This document shows positions 3,334-48,575 of a DNA stretch of 64,000 bases, piece after piece. The DNA comes from an uncultured Christensenellaceae bacterium (lineage in GTDB: Bacteria; Bacillota; Clostridia; Christensenellales; UBA3700). Each line of letters begins with the position of its first letter. Positions within the stretch are counted from its first letter, which is position 1. The position numbers and the translations under genes are program-made. The stretch is taken from the NCBI GenBank assembly GCA_944381365.1, contig CALWKW010000002.1, positions 180,719 through 244,718 on the forward strand, given 5' to 3'. Under the pieces are notes generated by a model, which saw only the letters and a list, made by a program, of their open reading frames with translations, searched no databases and was not told the DNA's origin.

Positions 3334-3849
3334 TTACTTTTCTTCTTTAGCTTCAACAGTCTTCTTTGCTTTTGTAGCTGTCTTAGAAGCTGTCTTCTTT
3401 GCGGGTGCCTTTGTTTCTTCTGCTACTGCCTCTTCTGTCTTAGCAGCCTTGGTAGCCTTAGAAGCTGTCTTGGGAGCTGCTTTCTTAGCAGTCTTAGCAG
3501 CCTTAGCGGGCTTAACATCCAAAGATGCTCCGCAAGCCTTGCAGACACGAGTCTTCTGAGTCTTGCCGTTCTCGTCAACCGTAACATTGTGAGCTACTCT
3601 TGTAACCTTGCCACAGCTGGGGCAGATAATCATTACATTGGATACATCCACAGAACCTTCTCTTTCGATGATGCCACCCTTTTCCTGAGCGTTACGGGGT
3701 TTTACAAAACACTTAACAGTCTTGAGTCCGTCACCCTTCAAAACAACTCTGTTTGCTTTGGTGTCAACTGCCAATACCTGTCCTGTCTTACCTTTATCAG
3801 CACCAGCGATAATCTTTACTGCATCGCCTTTCTTAACATTCATACTCAT
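3334..3849 (-). CDS. rplX: 50S ribosomal protein L24 with ~60 aa Lys/Ala-rich C-terminal extension
   Basis: KOW motif KKGDAVKIIAGADKGKTG; position between rplN and rplE. Confidence 0.96.
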   Translation of the reverse strand: MSMNVKKGDAVKIIAGADKGKTGQVLAVDTKANRVVLKGDGLKTVKCFVKPRNAQEKGGIIEREGSVDVSNVMIICPSCGKVTRVAHNVTVDENGKTQKTRVCKACGASLDVKPAKAAKTAKKAAPKTASKATKAAKTEEAVAEETKAPAKKTASKTATKAKKTVEAKEEK

Positions 3850-3864
3850 ATTGGTTTACCTCCG

Positions 3865-4233
3865 TTAAATTACCTCAGGGGCAAGGGATATAATCTTCAT
3901 ATAATCCTTATCTCTGAGCTCTCTTGCGATGGGTCCAAAGATACGAGTGCCTCTGGGTTGCTTTTGGTTGTCGATAATTACTGCTGCGTTGTCATCGAAT
4001 CTAATATAAGAACCGTCTGTTCTTCTGATACCCTTCTTGGTTCTTACGATAACTGCCTTAACAACATCGCCCTTCTTTACGACACCGCCGGGAGTAGCGT
4101 TTTGAACTGCAGCTACGATTACATCGCCAATGTTACCGCTTCTACGGAACGAACCACCCATTACTCTAATACACTTAATTTCTTTTGCACCGCTGTTGTC
4201 AGCAACGACCAATCTTGTCTCAGGTTGTATCAT
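3865..4233 (-). CDS. rplN: 50S ribosomal protein L14
   Basis: [17 protein letters not shown] and ISLAPEV motifs. Confidence 0.98.
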
Positions 4234-4247
4234 ATTCGTGGTCCTCC

Positions 4248-4505
4248 TTATTTAGCCTTTTCTACGATTTCGACTACTCTCCAATGTTTTTCCTTGGAAA
4301 GAGGTCTTGTCTCAACGATACGAACTGTATCGCCTATGCCACATTCATTTTGCTCGTCATGAGCCTTGAATGTCTTTGTTCTGTTGACAATCTTGCCATA
4401 AAGAGGATGCTTAACACGCTCTTTGATAGCTACGACAACGGTCTTGTCCATCTTGTCGCTTACTACAACACCGACTCTGGTCTTTCTGAGATTTCTTTCT
4501 TCCAT
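4248..4505 (-). CDS. rpsQ: 30S ribosomal protein S17
   Basis: [14 protein letters not shown] and ETRPLSK motifs. Confidence 0.98.
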
Positions 4506-9330: not shown

Positions 9331-9427
9331 TTTTGTTTCTCCTTTTTCCTAACTTATTTTTTATTACACACCGCCGTGTGTTCCACCCTTGCCAATTTTT
9401 AAAAGGCCGCAGAAAGCCTTTTTGTTA

Positions 9428-9510
9428 GTCGCCCGATTGTCGGACTCTTGTCCACGGAAGTTCTCTATATAATATAGTAACCTCCCGCTTCATCCCTATT
9501 GGCACGAGCA
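9428..9510 (-). promoter_or_regulatory. Putative S10-operon leader RNA (S10-Clostridia-like ribosomal leader)
   Basis: GC-richer block in the AT-rich rpsJ 5' region, GATGAAGCGGGAGGTT...GTCCG..CGGGCGAC; resembles clostridial rpsJ leaders from memory, not searched. Confidence 0.55.
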
Positions 9511-9894
9511 TAAAAAATATTACATTATTAGCAAAAAAAGGGCAAGCATTTGAAAATACTAAATTGTAAAATTTATGTAAAATCTTAAAATTATTGTCAT
9601 TTGAGCAGTTTTTTGTCTGAAAATATCGCTTTTCATTCTCTCTCTATCATCAAACAGACATGCAAAACTTATATAAAAGATATAAAATAATATTGATATC
9701 GTATTCGATATAATATAATGCTCGATATACTCCTATCTCCATAAAGATAAGAATATATTTATCTTCCTTGACAAAATAATTATATCATAATATTGAATTT
9801 TATAAAAGGATATACTTTATAAATTAAATAATAAATAAAAAAATTTATTTTAGCCGATACAAATCGCTTTATAAGGTGTAGTATAGTCAGAAAA

Positions 9895-9978
9895 CCTTAA
9901 AGAAGTCCCTTCATCTTTTTTAAGGCAAAGATCCGATACCCCCGTGGAAAAGGATATGCTTTCGGACATATCCTTTTC
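9895..9978 (+). ncRNA. Candidate orphan sRNA: hairpin with CU-rich loop, C-run, terminator-like hairpin
   Basis: CCTTAAAGAAG-TCCCTTCAT-CTTTTTTAAGG stem (one G-U on +), ACCCCCG, then GAAAAGGATATG/CATATCCTTTTC; no ORF; no clear promoter. Confidence 0.3.
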
Positions 9979-10126
9979 TATATGAATATATATTGATATT
10001 TTTTATTTTGTAATTTTCTTAAAAGGGTATTACAGCTCTTATTCATTATAGAAAGAATGTTTTTCTTTGCATAATTATTATCGCTATAATATATTATAAT
10101 TTATATATAAAATATTTTATCAATAG

Positions 10127-10167
10127 TAATATATACAATTTACCTAAGGCTTAAATTGTATATATTA
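10127..10167 (-). repeat. Dispersed spacer palindrome, copy 1
   Basis: TAATATATACAATTTA-CCTAAGGCT-TAAATTGTATATATTA; perfect 16-bp arms; spacer reads AGCCTTAGG on minus. Confidence 0.95.
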
Positions 10168-10199
10168 GACTCTCTTCGTGCGTGCATGCGTATATACGC

Positions 10200-10230
10200 A
10201 AAAGACGACTCATTTTACGAGTCGTCTTTT
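10200..10230. terminator. Bidirectional intrinsic terminator
   Basis: AAAAGACGACTC-ATTTTAC-GAGTCGTCTTTT downstream of the DUF1858 gene. Confidence 0.85.
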
Positions 10231-10250
10231 AATTTTAATAAAACTTTTAA

Positions 10251-10373
10251 GCCCTTGGAGATTAGTGCAGAGTTGCGATTTTGAAGAGAGTTCGCGAACG
10301 GAGCGTACTTTCCGTACGTGACTGAGCACAACTGCTCGCACTAAATTGCAAATATGTGCTGATATACAAGGGC
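10251..10373 (+). repeat. 123-nt long imperfect hairpin, MITE/REP-like element
   Basis: GCCCTTG...CAAGGGC termini; 33 stacked positions give 24 WC, 4 G-U, 5 mismatches; inner CGTAC/GTACG and GAGCA/TGCTC hairpins. Confidence 0.55.
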
Positions 10374-10380
10374 ACCATTA

Positions 10381-39728: not shown

Positions 39729-40589
39729 CTAATCAAGCTTTTTTGTATCGTCTTCTTCTATCTTGTTTTCGCTGTTATCTTTTGCAGACTGCTCGAGCTT
39801 GAGTGCTTCTTTCTTACTGACATAACTTCTTATCCAAGGTATTATACCTATATCGAAATCTGCATCTGCAAGCATTTTGCCTTTTTCTTCTCTCGATTTG
39901 AATAGCTTTGAATTTACTACATAATACAGACAAAGTATTCCCACTACCACAAATGCGATCACTATTGCACTTATTACCTTAACCGCAGCACTTGCCGAAG
40001 GTATCACATAAGTGATGATTTCGCCCGTAATAATTTTAATGATAATCATATTGTCCGTTCCGTCAAAATTCTTATATATGACACCATTATGTATAAGTAC
40101 CGATACAAGCACCATTATTGCTACGCCTATAATAGGCACATAAATTTCTTTGATTTTGTATTTGTCGACATTGCATAGCAAAAGCAAACCGCAGAAAAAC
40201 AATACACTATGCTGTATTACCGCCATTACGATATAAAACACGCTTGATGTATCACTTACTATCGAATCCGGTGCGGCAATACCCGCTACTATATAAGCTA
40301 CTCCCGCAAGTGCCGAACAGAATCCTGCATAAGCTCGCATCTTTTTTATACCAAGCACAAAAGTAAAACCTAATACAAAATACGACATTTGCGAAAATTC
40401 TATGGGATACATAGATTTGCCGATAATGCGATAAACACTGAACTCTATCGTCTTGTAAACTAGCAAAACAAGACCGATTACAAAAAGAATAATAATGCTG
40501 ATTTTTCTTTTATCTCTCAAAAGCCAAGTTAAAAAAACAGCCAAAACACCAGCAAGCACTATAATAAGTGCCAACCACCAATACTCCAT
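39729..40589 (-). CDS. Integral membrane protein (possibly YwaF/TMEM164-like)
   Basis: About 7 hydrophobic segments; GGAGGTG RBS. Confidence 0.7.
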   Translation of the reverse strand: MEYWWLALIIVLAGVLAVFLTWLLRDKRKISIIILFVIGLVLLVYKTIEFSVYRIIGKSMYPIEFSQMSYFVLGFTFVLGIKKMRAYAGFCSALAGVAYIVAGIAAPDSIVSDTSSVFYIVMAVIQHSVLFFCGLLLLCNVDKYKIKEIYVPIIGVAIMVLVSVLIHNGVIYKNFDGTDNMIIIKIITGEIITYVIPSASAAVKVISAIVIAFVVVGILCLYYVVNSKLFKSREEKGKMLADADFDIGIIPWIRSYVSKKEALKLEQSAKDNSENKIEEDDTKKLD

Positions 40590-40738
40590 AATTCACCTCC
40601 ACTAAAATTATTATACTACAAACTTTCTCAATAGTACATAAAATATAAAAAGCAATATAATCAAAAAACCGATTTCTTACTTTTTGTTTACAAAAAAAAC
40701 TTAAAAATTCTTTTATTTTTGCAAAATAAAAAAAATAA

Positions 40739-40767
40739 TTGACACGACAATGTCTTTACATTATAAT
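40739..40767 (+). promoter_or_regulatory. Consensus sigmaA promoter of the tRNA-Thr locus
   Basis: TTGACA-N17-TATAAT, perfect match. Confidence 0.85.
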
Positions 40768-40802
40768 AGATAGGCAAGGAAAAACATTGATTATTTAAAT
40801 AT

Positions 40803-40926
40803 GCTAACATGGCGCAGTAGGCATTTTGCGTATAGAAAACAATCCGGCGAATTGTTTTTAGCAAAATGAACCGCAATGTACCGACACTTTAAAAGTATTC
40901 CTCACTTTGTTTGCGGTCGGAAGCGC
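40803..40926 (+). pseudogene. 5' fragment of tRNA-Thr with 100-nt insert in the D-loop (copy A)
   Basis: GCTAACATGGCGCAGTAGG-[40822-40921]-AGCGC versus tRNA GCTAACGTGGCGCAGTAGG-T-AGCGC. Confidence 0.8.
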
Positions 40927-40948
40927 TACCGCAAAATTAAATTAATAT

Positions 40949-41024
40949 GCTAACGTGGCGCAGTAGGTAGCGCACATCATTGGTAATGATGAGGTCGGCA
41001 GTTCAAATCTGCTCGTTAGCTCCA
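40949..41024 (+). tRNA. tRNA-Thr(GGT)
   Basis: 76 nt cloverleaf: GCTAACG/CGTTAGC acceptor stem, CATCA-TTGGTAA-TGATG anticodon arm, GTTCAAATC T loop, encoded CCA. Confidence 0.97.
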
Positions 41025-41028
41025 AAAT

Positions 41029-41052
41029 ACCACCATTTATGGTGGTTTTTTT
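41029..41052 (+). terminator. Intrinsic terminator after tRNA-Thr (duplicated at ~41251-41273)
   Basis: ACCACCA-TTTA-TGGTGGT followed by a T tract. Confidence 0.88.
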
Positions 41053-41080
41053 GTTTGTAAGCTACCACTGCGACATCGTT

Positions 41081-41246
41081 TGGCGCAGCAGGCATTATGC
41101 GTATAGAAAACAATCCGGCGAATTGTTTTTAGCAAAATGAACCGCAATGTACCGACACTTTAAAAGTATTTCTCACTTTGTTTGCGGTCGAAAGCGCACA
41201 TCACCCTATGATGAGGTCGGCAGTTTTATCTCCCTCGTTAGCTCCA
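41081..41246 (+). pseudogene. Degenerate tRNA-Thr copy with the same 100-nt D-loop insert (copy B)
   Basis: TGGCGCAGCAGG-[41093-41192]-AGCGCACATCACCCTATGATGAGGTCGGCAGTTTTATCTCCCTCGTTAGCTCCA; anticodon and T loops broken. Confidence 0.85.
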
Positions 41247-41372
41247 AAATACCACCATTTATGGTGGTTTTTTGTTTGTAAGCTACCACTACATATTTTT
41301 ATTAAGCGATTATATGAATAAAAGAGCCTTGATAGTCAAAGCTCTTTTTGATATTTTATCAATCACATTTTT

Positions 41373-41870
41373 TTAATCAAACACTTTTTTTTCAGAATCA
41401 TCGATGGTTTTTGATGCCAAATTGACTTTATCTTTGTATATTATTTTGATGCCGTCTATTGCAAATCCAAGTCCGACTATCATTGCTATTATACCGAAAA
41501 CAAAGAAAAGTATTGCATTTTGTTTGTTGTTTTCAGGCGTGACAAAATCTTCGGGATTTTCGGGATTGTAATATATTGTTATCTTCTCTCCTATATCTTT
41601 AGGATTATTGGTTTCGGCATCTTTTAATTTATAAACTTCTCCCTGTGCCTCAAACTCGATTATCGGAGTATAATAATACTTTTTTTCCGTATCATCCCAC
41701 CTTTCTCTGACTTCATAATCGGTTATCGTAGCTTGGGTTTTTACAAAGTTATCATACGCTTTTTCGTTTTCTATAAAATTATATGTACCCAAACCTATCA
41801 CCGCAAAACTGACAAGCAAAACTATACATCCTATAATTATATCGAATTTTGCATTTTTAAAAATATTCAT
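41373..41870 (-). CDS. DUF3592-like membrane protein
   Basis: TM, beta domain ending IYYNPENP, TM; start uncertain (41870 or 41885). Confidence 0.75.
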   Translation of the reverse strand: MNIFKNAKFDIIIGCIVLLVSFAVIGLGTYNFIENEKAYDNFVKTQATITDYEVRERWDDTEKKYYYTPIIEFEAQGEVYKLKDAETNNPKDIGEKITIYYNPENPEDFVTPENNKQNAILFFVFGIIAMIVGLGFAIDGIKIIYKDKVNLASKTIDDSEKKVFD

Positions 41871-42024
41871 ACAAAAACATCCCACTTAGTATTTATTCTA
41901 AATATTTATATGACCATTGTCAATACCCAAACCATAATTTTGTCTATTATAAAACAAAATTTTCTATTGAAATTTTATAGCTTTTATAATATAATATTTG
42001 TATAAACTTTTGGAAGAAAGGCTT

Positions 42025-47238: not shown

Positions 47239-48344
47239 TTATTTGCTTATGATTGACTTGCAAAGCCAAGCTATCTGAGTATTGTCAATCACTTTAGGAA
47301 AATCCATATTTATATCGCCAAATACAAAATAAGGTACATTTGCCGAAGAATGCTCGCCCCTTGTGTACATGCCGTCATTGAGTTCTGAATCGCTCTCGCC
47401 GTTGTACTGAAGTCCGCCTGTTTCGTGGTCAGCCGTGACTATTACTACCGTATTTCCCAAAGCCTTTGCATATTCTACTACGGCTTTGATCGTGTTGTCA
47501 TAAGCCTTGACATGGCTTAGTGCTCCGTCAAGATCGTTTATATGACTGCACTTATCGATATGGCTCTCTTCTATCATCATAAAGAAGCCGTCTTCATCAG
47601 TCGAAATCTTGTCCAAAGCAATGGTAGCAAGATTTGCAAGAGTAGGTTTTTTATCTCCTCCGTCCTCGAGAGGTATTTCCTCAAATGAAGCAAAAACTTT
47701 ATCTTTGGACATATCCAAAGTGCTTATGCTGTCAGAAAAATCATATCCGCTTTTTCTATTTTGTCGCTCAAAGAAGCATATCTTTGAATATTGCTGCCGA
47801 AGAAAATATCTATATTGCTTTTGAGCTGGTCATCCAATATTCCGTCAATATCATTTCTGGAAGATGTATGAGCCGAGAATCCCGAGGGAGTAGCTCCGTC
47901 TACGCCTTCAGTGGCAAGTATAGCCGTGCTCATTCCAAGCGATACGGCAAGTTCTGTGGTGGATTGTTTTTCCTTGCCGAGATACTGACCTATATTTCCA
48001 TTGTCAGTCTTTGTGCCTGTGGCAAGTGCCGTAGCAGCAGCCGCACTGTCGGTAGGTCCAAACAAATTGCGGGAAAAAGTAGTCACTTCGCCTTTTATGG
48101 TAGCACTGTTCATAAACAATTCACCGTACCTAGCTTCCGCAGCTTTTATGTGATTGAATCCCATTCCGTCCCCTATCATGAGGATTACATTGAGCTTTTC
48201 TCCCTCATAATCGAGTTTTTCGATATTGTTGATTTTTACTGCTCTTGCTATACCCATCGATGCAAATACGACAGATATAATCAATATCACTGCAATTAAA
48301 GCAATTGCCGTGATTTTTATAATTCTTTTTTTTGTATTTTCCAT
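47239..48344 (-). pseudogene. Alkaline phosphatase split by a 1-nt frameshift
   Basis: 5' ORF has IGDGMG, TDSAAAATALATG and ATP; 3' ORF has FFMMIEE.HID..SH and VTADHETGG; adding one A at the A5 run (T5 at 47751-47755) joins them as IEKSGYDFSD. Confidence 0.85.
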
Positions 48345-48575
48345 AATTACCCTCGAATTATTTTTTATAATTATAGCACAACAAAACAAACTAAACAATA
48401 TCAAAAAATAAAAGTTTGATATTTATATAAACTTTGAAAAGATTTTGTAAGTTTTTTGTTATTTTTTATAAAATCCAAATTAGATATAAAAAAACTTTTA
48501 CTTTGCGATTGATTTGACCTTTATTATATATATATGTTAAAATATTTTATGTACTAATTAAACAAGGTGGACATT

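Follow-up and report, generated by a model that had tools for sequence, protein, structure and literature searches.

A tRNA-Thr(GGU) gene between two dead partial copies that share a 100-nt D-loop insert, possibly the scar of a local rearrangement

Bacterial tRNA genes are uniform and, according to PMC4033280, are interrupted only by group I or group II introns at position 37/38. Group I introns, like the sequence described in this study, place extra nucleotides inside a tRNA coding sequence; in the same account they interrupt an otherwise complete gene at position 37/38 and possess a catalytic core of about ten helices, whereas the insert found here is 100 nt long and sits at position 20 (PMC4033280). 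Unlike the hosts of such introns, neither of the two interrupted copies would yield a tRNA even if spliced, since the first (copy A) has nothing past position 25, and the second (copy B) lacks positions 1–7. No insertion of this kind in a bacterial tRNA D-loop was found in the literature, as covered by titles and the opening lines of abstracts, with subscription-only papers falling outside that search.

Genomic islands that integrate into tRNA genes as a rule have their breakpoints in the anticodon loop, in the T loop or at the 3′ end. Such integration restores the tRNA gene and displaces a fragment of it (PMC4383910), and the resulting Islander-type loci of islands and prophages resemble the present one, in that an intact tRNA gene lies beside partial duplicates that mark intragenic breakpoints (PMC4383910). 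However, the locus described here has neither island nor integrase, its fragments lie on both sides of the gene within about 150 nt, its breakpoints are in the D-arm, and both fragments contain the 100-nt insert. The original prediction for this DNA had held that neither an anticodon-loop group I intron nor a tRNA-targeting integrase could account for it, and this stands: at E up to 10, the insert has no match to a group I intron or to any other Rfam family, and no integrase is encoded in the window, by which I mean the whole 64,000-nt stretch of DNA that was analysed.

A tRNA-Thr(GGU) of Caldiarchaeum subterraneum, which has a fragment near the full gene and has gained an intervening sequence, is ascribed to recombination within a short time frame in PMC3293823. 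The tRNA species, the nearby fragment and the gained sequence are shared with the locus reported here (PMC3293823), and the likeness is one of analogy only. In the present case, by contrast, a single locus is involved, there is no recombinase, and the host is a bacterium, without known tRNA-splicing machinery.

The transfer-messenger RNA (tmRNA) and the bacterial Y RNAs are conserved families that keep an acceptor/T-arm mimic. As in the copies described below, tRNA-derived parts are joined in these RNAs to a non-tRNA domain (PMC4201824). However, the acceptor stem cannot form in copy A or in copy B, and neither tmRNA nor any other family was found.

Layout of the tRNA-Thr locus

As chromosomal DNA, the window is ordinary; it comes from a spore-forming, Clostridia-like Firmicute and includes genes for the S10/spc ribosomal proteins, the pyr operon, dnaD-/dnaI-like proteins, a HydABC-type hydrogenase, the GPR spore protease, WhiA and DnaE. 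The immediate neighbourhood of the locus is of a housekeeping nature, with the dnaD/dnaI-like genes and the HydABC-type hydrogenase. ARAGORN identified a single tRNA in the 64,000 nt, tRNA-Thr(GGU) at 40949–41024, which has a canonical cloverleaf and scores 68.9 bits with the Rfam tRNA model (gathering score 29). Around it, the features are as follows.

39729–40589, minus strand: multi-pass membrane protein gene (286 aa), on one side of the locus
40739–40767, plus strand: sigma-70-type promoter, TTGACA-17-TATAAT, 12 of 12 consensus positions
40790–40935, plus strand: unit 1, with a 13-nt 5′ flank, the acceptor 5′ strand, U8, G9, the D-arm with insert and a 9-nt filler
40790–40802, plus strand: 5′ flank of copy A (13 nt), paralogous to the flank of the intact gene at 40936–40948
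40803–40926, plus strand: copy A, with the acceptor 5′ strand (A, not G, at position 7), U8, G9 and the D-arm with insert
40822–40921, plus strand: insert A, 100 nt replacing U20 in copy A
40822–40868: hairpin 1 of the insert, made of two 8-bp helices, one nested in the other, with greater stability on the minus strand
40927–40935, plus strand: junction filler (9 nt) between copy A and the next unit
40936–41080, plus strand: unit 2, the complete gene with flank, terminator and tail
40949–41024, plus strand: intact tRNA-Thr(GGU), anticodon GGT, CCA encoded (ARAGORN, Rfam)
41029–41055, plus strand: intrinsic terminator 1 (hairpin 41029–41046), a 7-bp stem with four G-C pairs followed by a T run
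41056–41080, plus strand: tail after terminator 1 and junction to copy B, with 23 nt identical (100%) to 41268–41290
41081–41298, plus strand: unit 3, from tRNA position 8, with the D-arm and insert, the 3′ half, CCA, terminator 2 and tail
41081–41246, plus strand: copy B, starting at tRNA position 8, without the acceptor 5′ strand
41093–41192, plus strand: insert B, 100 nt replacing U20, in the D-arm of copy B
41251–41290, plus strand: terminator 2 (hairpin 41251–41268) and duplicated tail
41373–41885, minus strand: multi-pass membrane protein gene with a DUF3592 domain, on the other side of the locus

The anatomy, breakpoints and identities of this locus can be read directly from the letters. 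They agree with the order that had been proposed (promoter, copy A, intact tRNA with its terminator, copy B, duplicated terminator), and the promoter which had been called a perfect sigmaA promoter indeed departs from consensus at none of the 12 positions. The first 32 nt of unit 1 (40790–40821) are repeated at 40936–40967 with 88% identity. Copy A extends no further than the end of the D-stem 3′ strand (position 25), without anticodon arm, T arm or acceptor 3′ strand. Eight of the nine nucleotides of the filler that follows (40928–40935) are the perfect reverse complement of 40909–40916, at the end of the insert, and no other template for it was found within the window beyond chance 9–11-mers.

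In copy B, the anticodon loop is rewritten (41204–41208) to 5 nt instead of 7, the anticodon being gone and the anticodon stem present. The T loop and the 3′ strand of the T stem are also rewritten (41224–41235), and the acceptor 3′ strand with its CCA is intact (41236–41246); the destruction of both loops, which had been noted earlier, is thus seen in the alignment. Over the remaining ∼85 positions that align with the live gene (3′ part, terminator and tail), there are no isolated substitutions and one indel in the T run. The chance that such block changes would coincide precisely with the anticodon and T loops is ∼0.04 by Monte Carlo simulation. In the minimum-energy fold of unit 3, the two rewritten blocks make a new local helix, UGAUGAGG with CCUCGUUA. 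Neither copy A nor copy B forms a complete cloverleaf, and both ARAGORN and the Rfam tRNA model detect only 40949–41024 as a tRNA.

The two copies have in common a direct repeat of 117 nt (40810–40926 and 41081–41197), with 113 identical positions and a longest exact run of ∼73 nt, and this repeated module coincides with a structural unit, the D-arm. Within it, the two inserts each take the place of U20 in the D-loop, bordered by G19 and A21, for a net gain of 99 nt. The alignment upholds the earlier claim that they are identical at 97 of 100 positions and replace one T at the same D-loop site; the differences are at 40826 (T/A), 40900 (C/T) and 40920 (G/A). Patterns of 27 and 28 nt derived from the insert, searched with up to three mismatches, match only the two inserts where none is expected, so the repeated insert cannot be a product of chance. 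It shows no coding potential, as all six frames contain stops or lack starts.

The only strong promoter upstream of the tRNA is that at 40739–40767, the five other promoter-like sites in 40400–41600 scoring 9 of 12. Hairpins with a T run, resembling terminators, are found at two sites, compared to 0.7 ± 0.8 in shuffled sequences. Copy A is placed after the promoter and before the tRNA, no terminator separates it from the intact gene, and because of this layout it must be co-transcribed with tRNA-Thr. Transcription would start near 40775 and run to terminator 1, producing a precursor of ∼280 nt, of which a leader of ∼174 nt would correspond to copy A; judging from the same arrangement, an RNase P cut at 40949 would release the tRNA. 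Copy B, located behind a terminator and with no promoter of its own, would be mostly silent and produced only by read-through. When the precursor takes its minimum-energy fold, the acceptor strand of copy A replaces the tRNA's own 5′ strand in pairing with the tRNA 3′ strand, and the copy A leader could mildly interfere with tRNA folding. If it is a rearrangement scar, the locus illustrates that tRNA fragments can lie inside a tRNA leader, where an acceptor strand such as that of copy A can compete for the 3′ strand of the tRNA.

Folding of the insert and searches for further copies

I compared the predicted folding energies of the insert and its parts with those of shuffled sequences. Hairpin 1 (40820–40870) is the only element to exceed the shuffles, with a z of −2.28 on the plus strand (5 of 200 shuffles as good) and −4.08 on the minus strand (0 of 200), and by this measure it appears clearly non-random. 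The second domain (40868–40922) has a z of −0.53 on the plus strand and −1.32 on the minus strand. For the plus strand, the insert alone gives −1.27 (A) and −0.30 (B), and the 117-nt module −0.21 (copy A) and +1.02 (copy B), so that neither the second helix nor the whole module stands out.

The original prediction had each insert fold into two helices. The complementary segments do exist and hairpin 1 surpasses the shuffles, but the second helix does no better than they do; it is present in the minimum-energy fold of copy B only, and in copy A (−9.0 kcal/mol) loses to a local hairpin formed by 40909–40916 and 40928–40935 (−11.2 kcal/mol). The D-stem, GCGC/GCGC, closes the module in the minimum-energy folds of both copies, and no bulge-helix-bulge is present at the insert junctions in these folds. 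As for the three differences between the inserts, 40826 T/A removes a base pair from hairpin 1 of copy B, 40920 G/A breaks an alternative CCGAC/GUCGG pairing, both uncompensated, and 40900 C/T falls in a loop; none of the three is compensatory, in a pair of copies that are 97% identical and therefore have almost no power to reveal covariation.

At gathering scores, the tRNA alone passes in an Rfam scan of the whole window. At E up to 10, region 40600–41400 gives 21 matches, none of them to an intron family, and again only the tRNA reaches its gathering score, the other 20 being low-scoring matches driven mostly by the tRNA or the terminators. A T-box leader was considered and dropped, as no Rfam T-box match was found, and so was an anticodon-arm mimic for ThrRS, the anticodon loop of copy B being destroyed.

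These observations bear on the possibility that the insert, clamped by the D-stem, is a tRNA-derived structured RNA, with copy A a leader released by RNase P, copy B made by read-through, and a role in tRNA-Thr processing or as a small RNA. The repeated module is the D-arm, its GCGC/GCGC stem closes both minimum-energy folds, and hairpin 1 is significant, but the module as a whole folds no better than shuffled sequence, two of the three differences between the inserts disrupt predicted pairing and are uncompensated, and the insert belongs to no Rfam family. Copy A must be transcribed with the tRNA, and the pairing of its acceptor strand with the tRNA 3′ strand in the precursor fold could affect maturation; copy B, on the other hand, is promoterless and lies behind a good terminator. 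In copy B, the block changes abolish features of a tRNA, and the insert is kept. The related argument, in which a conserved insert is set against decaying loops, does not hold in the form first given, as it compares different pairs of copies, with 4 substitutions in 117 positions for one pair and 0 in 85 for the other, rates that are not distinguishable (Fisher p 0.14). I consider a functional RNA fairly unlikely, and the structured non-coding RNA of the original prediction is not supported on the same points, only one of its two helices being beyond chance, the differences breaking pairs, and copy B being behind a terminator.

In the rest of the window, neither a third copy of the insert nor a source for its sequence was found (blastn with word size 7, best E 0.15), and copy A has no match among 50,697 phage and 72,556 plasmid records (blastn, E up to 1). 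A scan of 185,579 species genomes for an exact 19-mer of the insert, which misses diverged relatives, produced no true match; it returned two loci, the present window not being one of them. Both were rejected as chance matches, since they are coding DNA of Bacteroidia metagenome-assembled genomes, with unrelated flanks and no tRNA. The two loci (L001, 1995–2025 on the minus strand, and L002, 1835–1860) share a few extra bases around the match, and may be homologous genes, unrelated to the tRNA locus. Two spurious open reading frames cross the copies: one of 62 aa (40688–40876, minus strand), for which no candidate relative was found, and one of 44 aa (41147–41281, plus strand), with 0 matches among 1.84 billion representatives. 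Both negatives are weak, as such a match needs a gene-caller prediction.

None of the 68 open reading frames of at least 70 aa in the window is an integrase, transposase or reverse transcriptase in a Pfam or NCBIfam scan. A diversity-generating retroelement repeat pair was dropped for want of a reverse transcriptase, and integron-type recombination sites for want of an integron integrase. The insert has no terminal inverted repeats that could be found and no clear target-site duplication, with at most a repeated GG dinucleotide at its junctions.

It is quite unlikely that the insert is a 100-nt non-autonomous homing element, specific for the D-loop DNA of tRNA-Thr, that entered the two dead D-arms independently, selection removing its insertions from the live gene. 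Such an element would explain why two separate D-arm copies are interrupted at one and the same point while the intact copy is spared, and hairpin 1, a significant terminal hairpin that is stabler on the minus strand, could be a recognition structure in single-stranded DNA. However, there are only two copies in 64 kb, both at the tRNA-Thr locus, with no true match in the phage, plasmid and 19-mer searches, no terminal inverted repeats, no clear target duplication and no mobility gene. The proposal of a small element targeting tRNA D-loops, made from the sequence at the outset, is not borne out by these searches. Stated so as to include either a small element or a D-stem-clamped RNA module, the idea that the 100-nt sequence enters tRNA-Thr D-loop DNA at one exact position and persists only in dead copies remains rather improbable; if true, it would be the first bacterial insertion class specific for the tRNA D-loop, at a site where interruption of bacterial tRNA genes is not known.

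Origin of the locus

The locus may well be a recent local rearrangement, produced during replication or repair, of a single tRNA-Thr(GGU) gene, of which one live gene is left; I hold this reading with as much belief as doubt. As part of it, the locus is best read as neither an RNA gene nor a mobile element in its own right, with the insert copies as passengers. I infer the order of events and the mechanism as follows. Two partial tandem duplications, overlapping only on the D-arm (tRNA positions 8–25), would have occurred, one taking in the 5′ flank and everything up to the end of the D-stem and the other from position 8 to ∼56 nt past the gene. The outcome would be one central complete gene, with a dead 5′ fragment forming part of its leader and a dead 3′ fragment following its terminator. 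About 99 nt of filler would have entered the D-loops of the two fragments, whether during one and the same multi-step template-switching event or earlier than the duplications; in the latter case, only the full-length copy would have possessed two-sided homology for its restoration, and selection would have favoured restoration as well.

Several features of the anatomy are consistent with this. Three breakpoints fall within the 18-nt D-arm, namely the start of copy B at position 8, the insert at position 20 and the end of copy A at position 25. Native sequence continues on the left of unit 1 (promoter, flank and acceptor strand) and on the right of unit 3, and this one-sided continuation of each fragment is what partial tandem duplicates overlapping on the D-arm leave. 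The 9-nt filler, with its 8-nt reverse complement of the insert end, suggests snap-back synthesis. The substitution counts between the copies are 4/117, 4/32 and 0/85, with pairwise Fisher p of 0.14 and 0.065; the copies are about equally young, and the counts are compatible with one age. Because they fit one age, one complex template-switching rearrangement, or a short series, would be favoured.

Other features weigh against a local rearrangement. Both dead copies carry the insert and the live gene does not, which means that sequential duplications would need an extra step, which could be a second insertion, a precise loss, or conversion or repair. A single event would need five or six template switches, and no source sequence for the ∼99-nt insert was found in the window. 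The coincidence of the shared module with the D-arm and the clearly non-random hairpin 1 also count against a rearrangement. The block changes in copy B look more like selection or a new role than the neutral decay of a dead fragment, and a rearrangement explains neither their placement nor the regularity of hairpin 1. These points leave a low probability to both ideas of the original prediction. If the locus is indeed a rearrangement scar, it provides a worked example of how partial duplications around hairpin-coding DNA can create sequences that resemble a tRNA and can be taken for a mobile element or a new RNA. It is real and odd, and confined to one place in all the data searched, tRNA fragments from local rearrangement being already known.

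A different kind of scar, in which the fragments are tRNA pieces displaced at the att sites of an integrative element and the insert is the remnant of a deleted island, is very unlikely. The fragments do flank an intact gene, in keeping with the regenerated gene and displaced fragment of tRNA-gene integration as given in PMC4383910, but the window has no integrase, the fragments are on both sides, 13 and 56 nt from the gene, the crossover would fall in the D-loop, and the 154-nt interval between the repeats holds only the tRNA. Least probable of all is an assembly artefact in which two strain variants, with and without the insert, were joined in one path: repeats as short as these (117 nt, exact run ∼73 nt) could confuse a short-read assembler, but they differ by substitutions and block changes and are bounded by unique junction sequence (40927–40935 and 41070–41080), none of which a mis-walked two-variant graph would create.

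Other features of the window

Immediately downstream of copy B, at and slightly beyond the 3′ end of the DUF3592 gene, an 18-nt tandem repeat is present at 41354–41392 (2.2 copies, 85% matches). Upstream of rpsJ, which is on the minus strand, ∼1 kb of AT-rich intergenic DNA extends over 9331–10380; its part 9331–10155 has no open reading frame of 40 aa or more in any frame and no Rfam match at gathering scores, and a GC-rich, hairpin-like segment lies in this AT-rich stretch near 10170–10230. Antisense to the ribosomal protein operon, two open reading frames on the plus strand (938–1630 and 3589–4362, of 230 and 257 aa respectively) match no family, and are probably shadow ORFs. On the minus strand at 47239–48404, two neighbouring open reading frames that differ in frame each match the alkaline phosphatase model (profile positions 69–196 and 321–400), which suggests that the alkaline phosphatase gene there is frameshifted or otherwise split.
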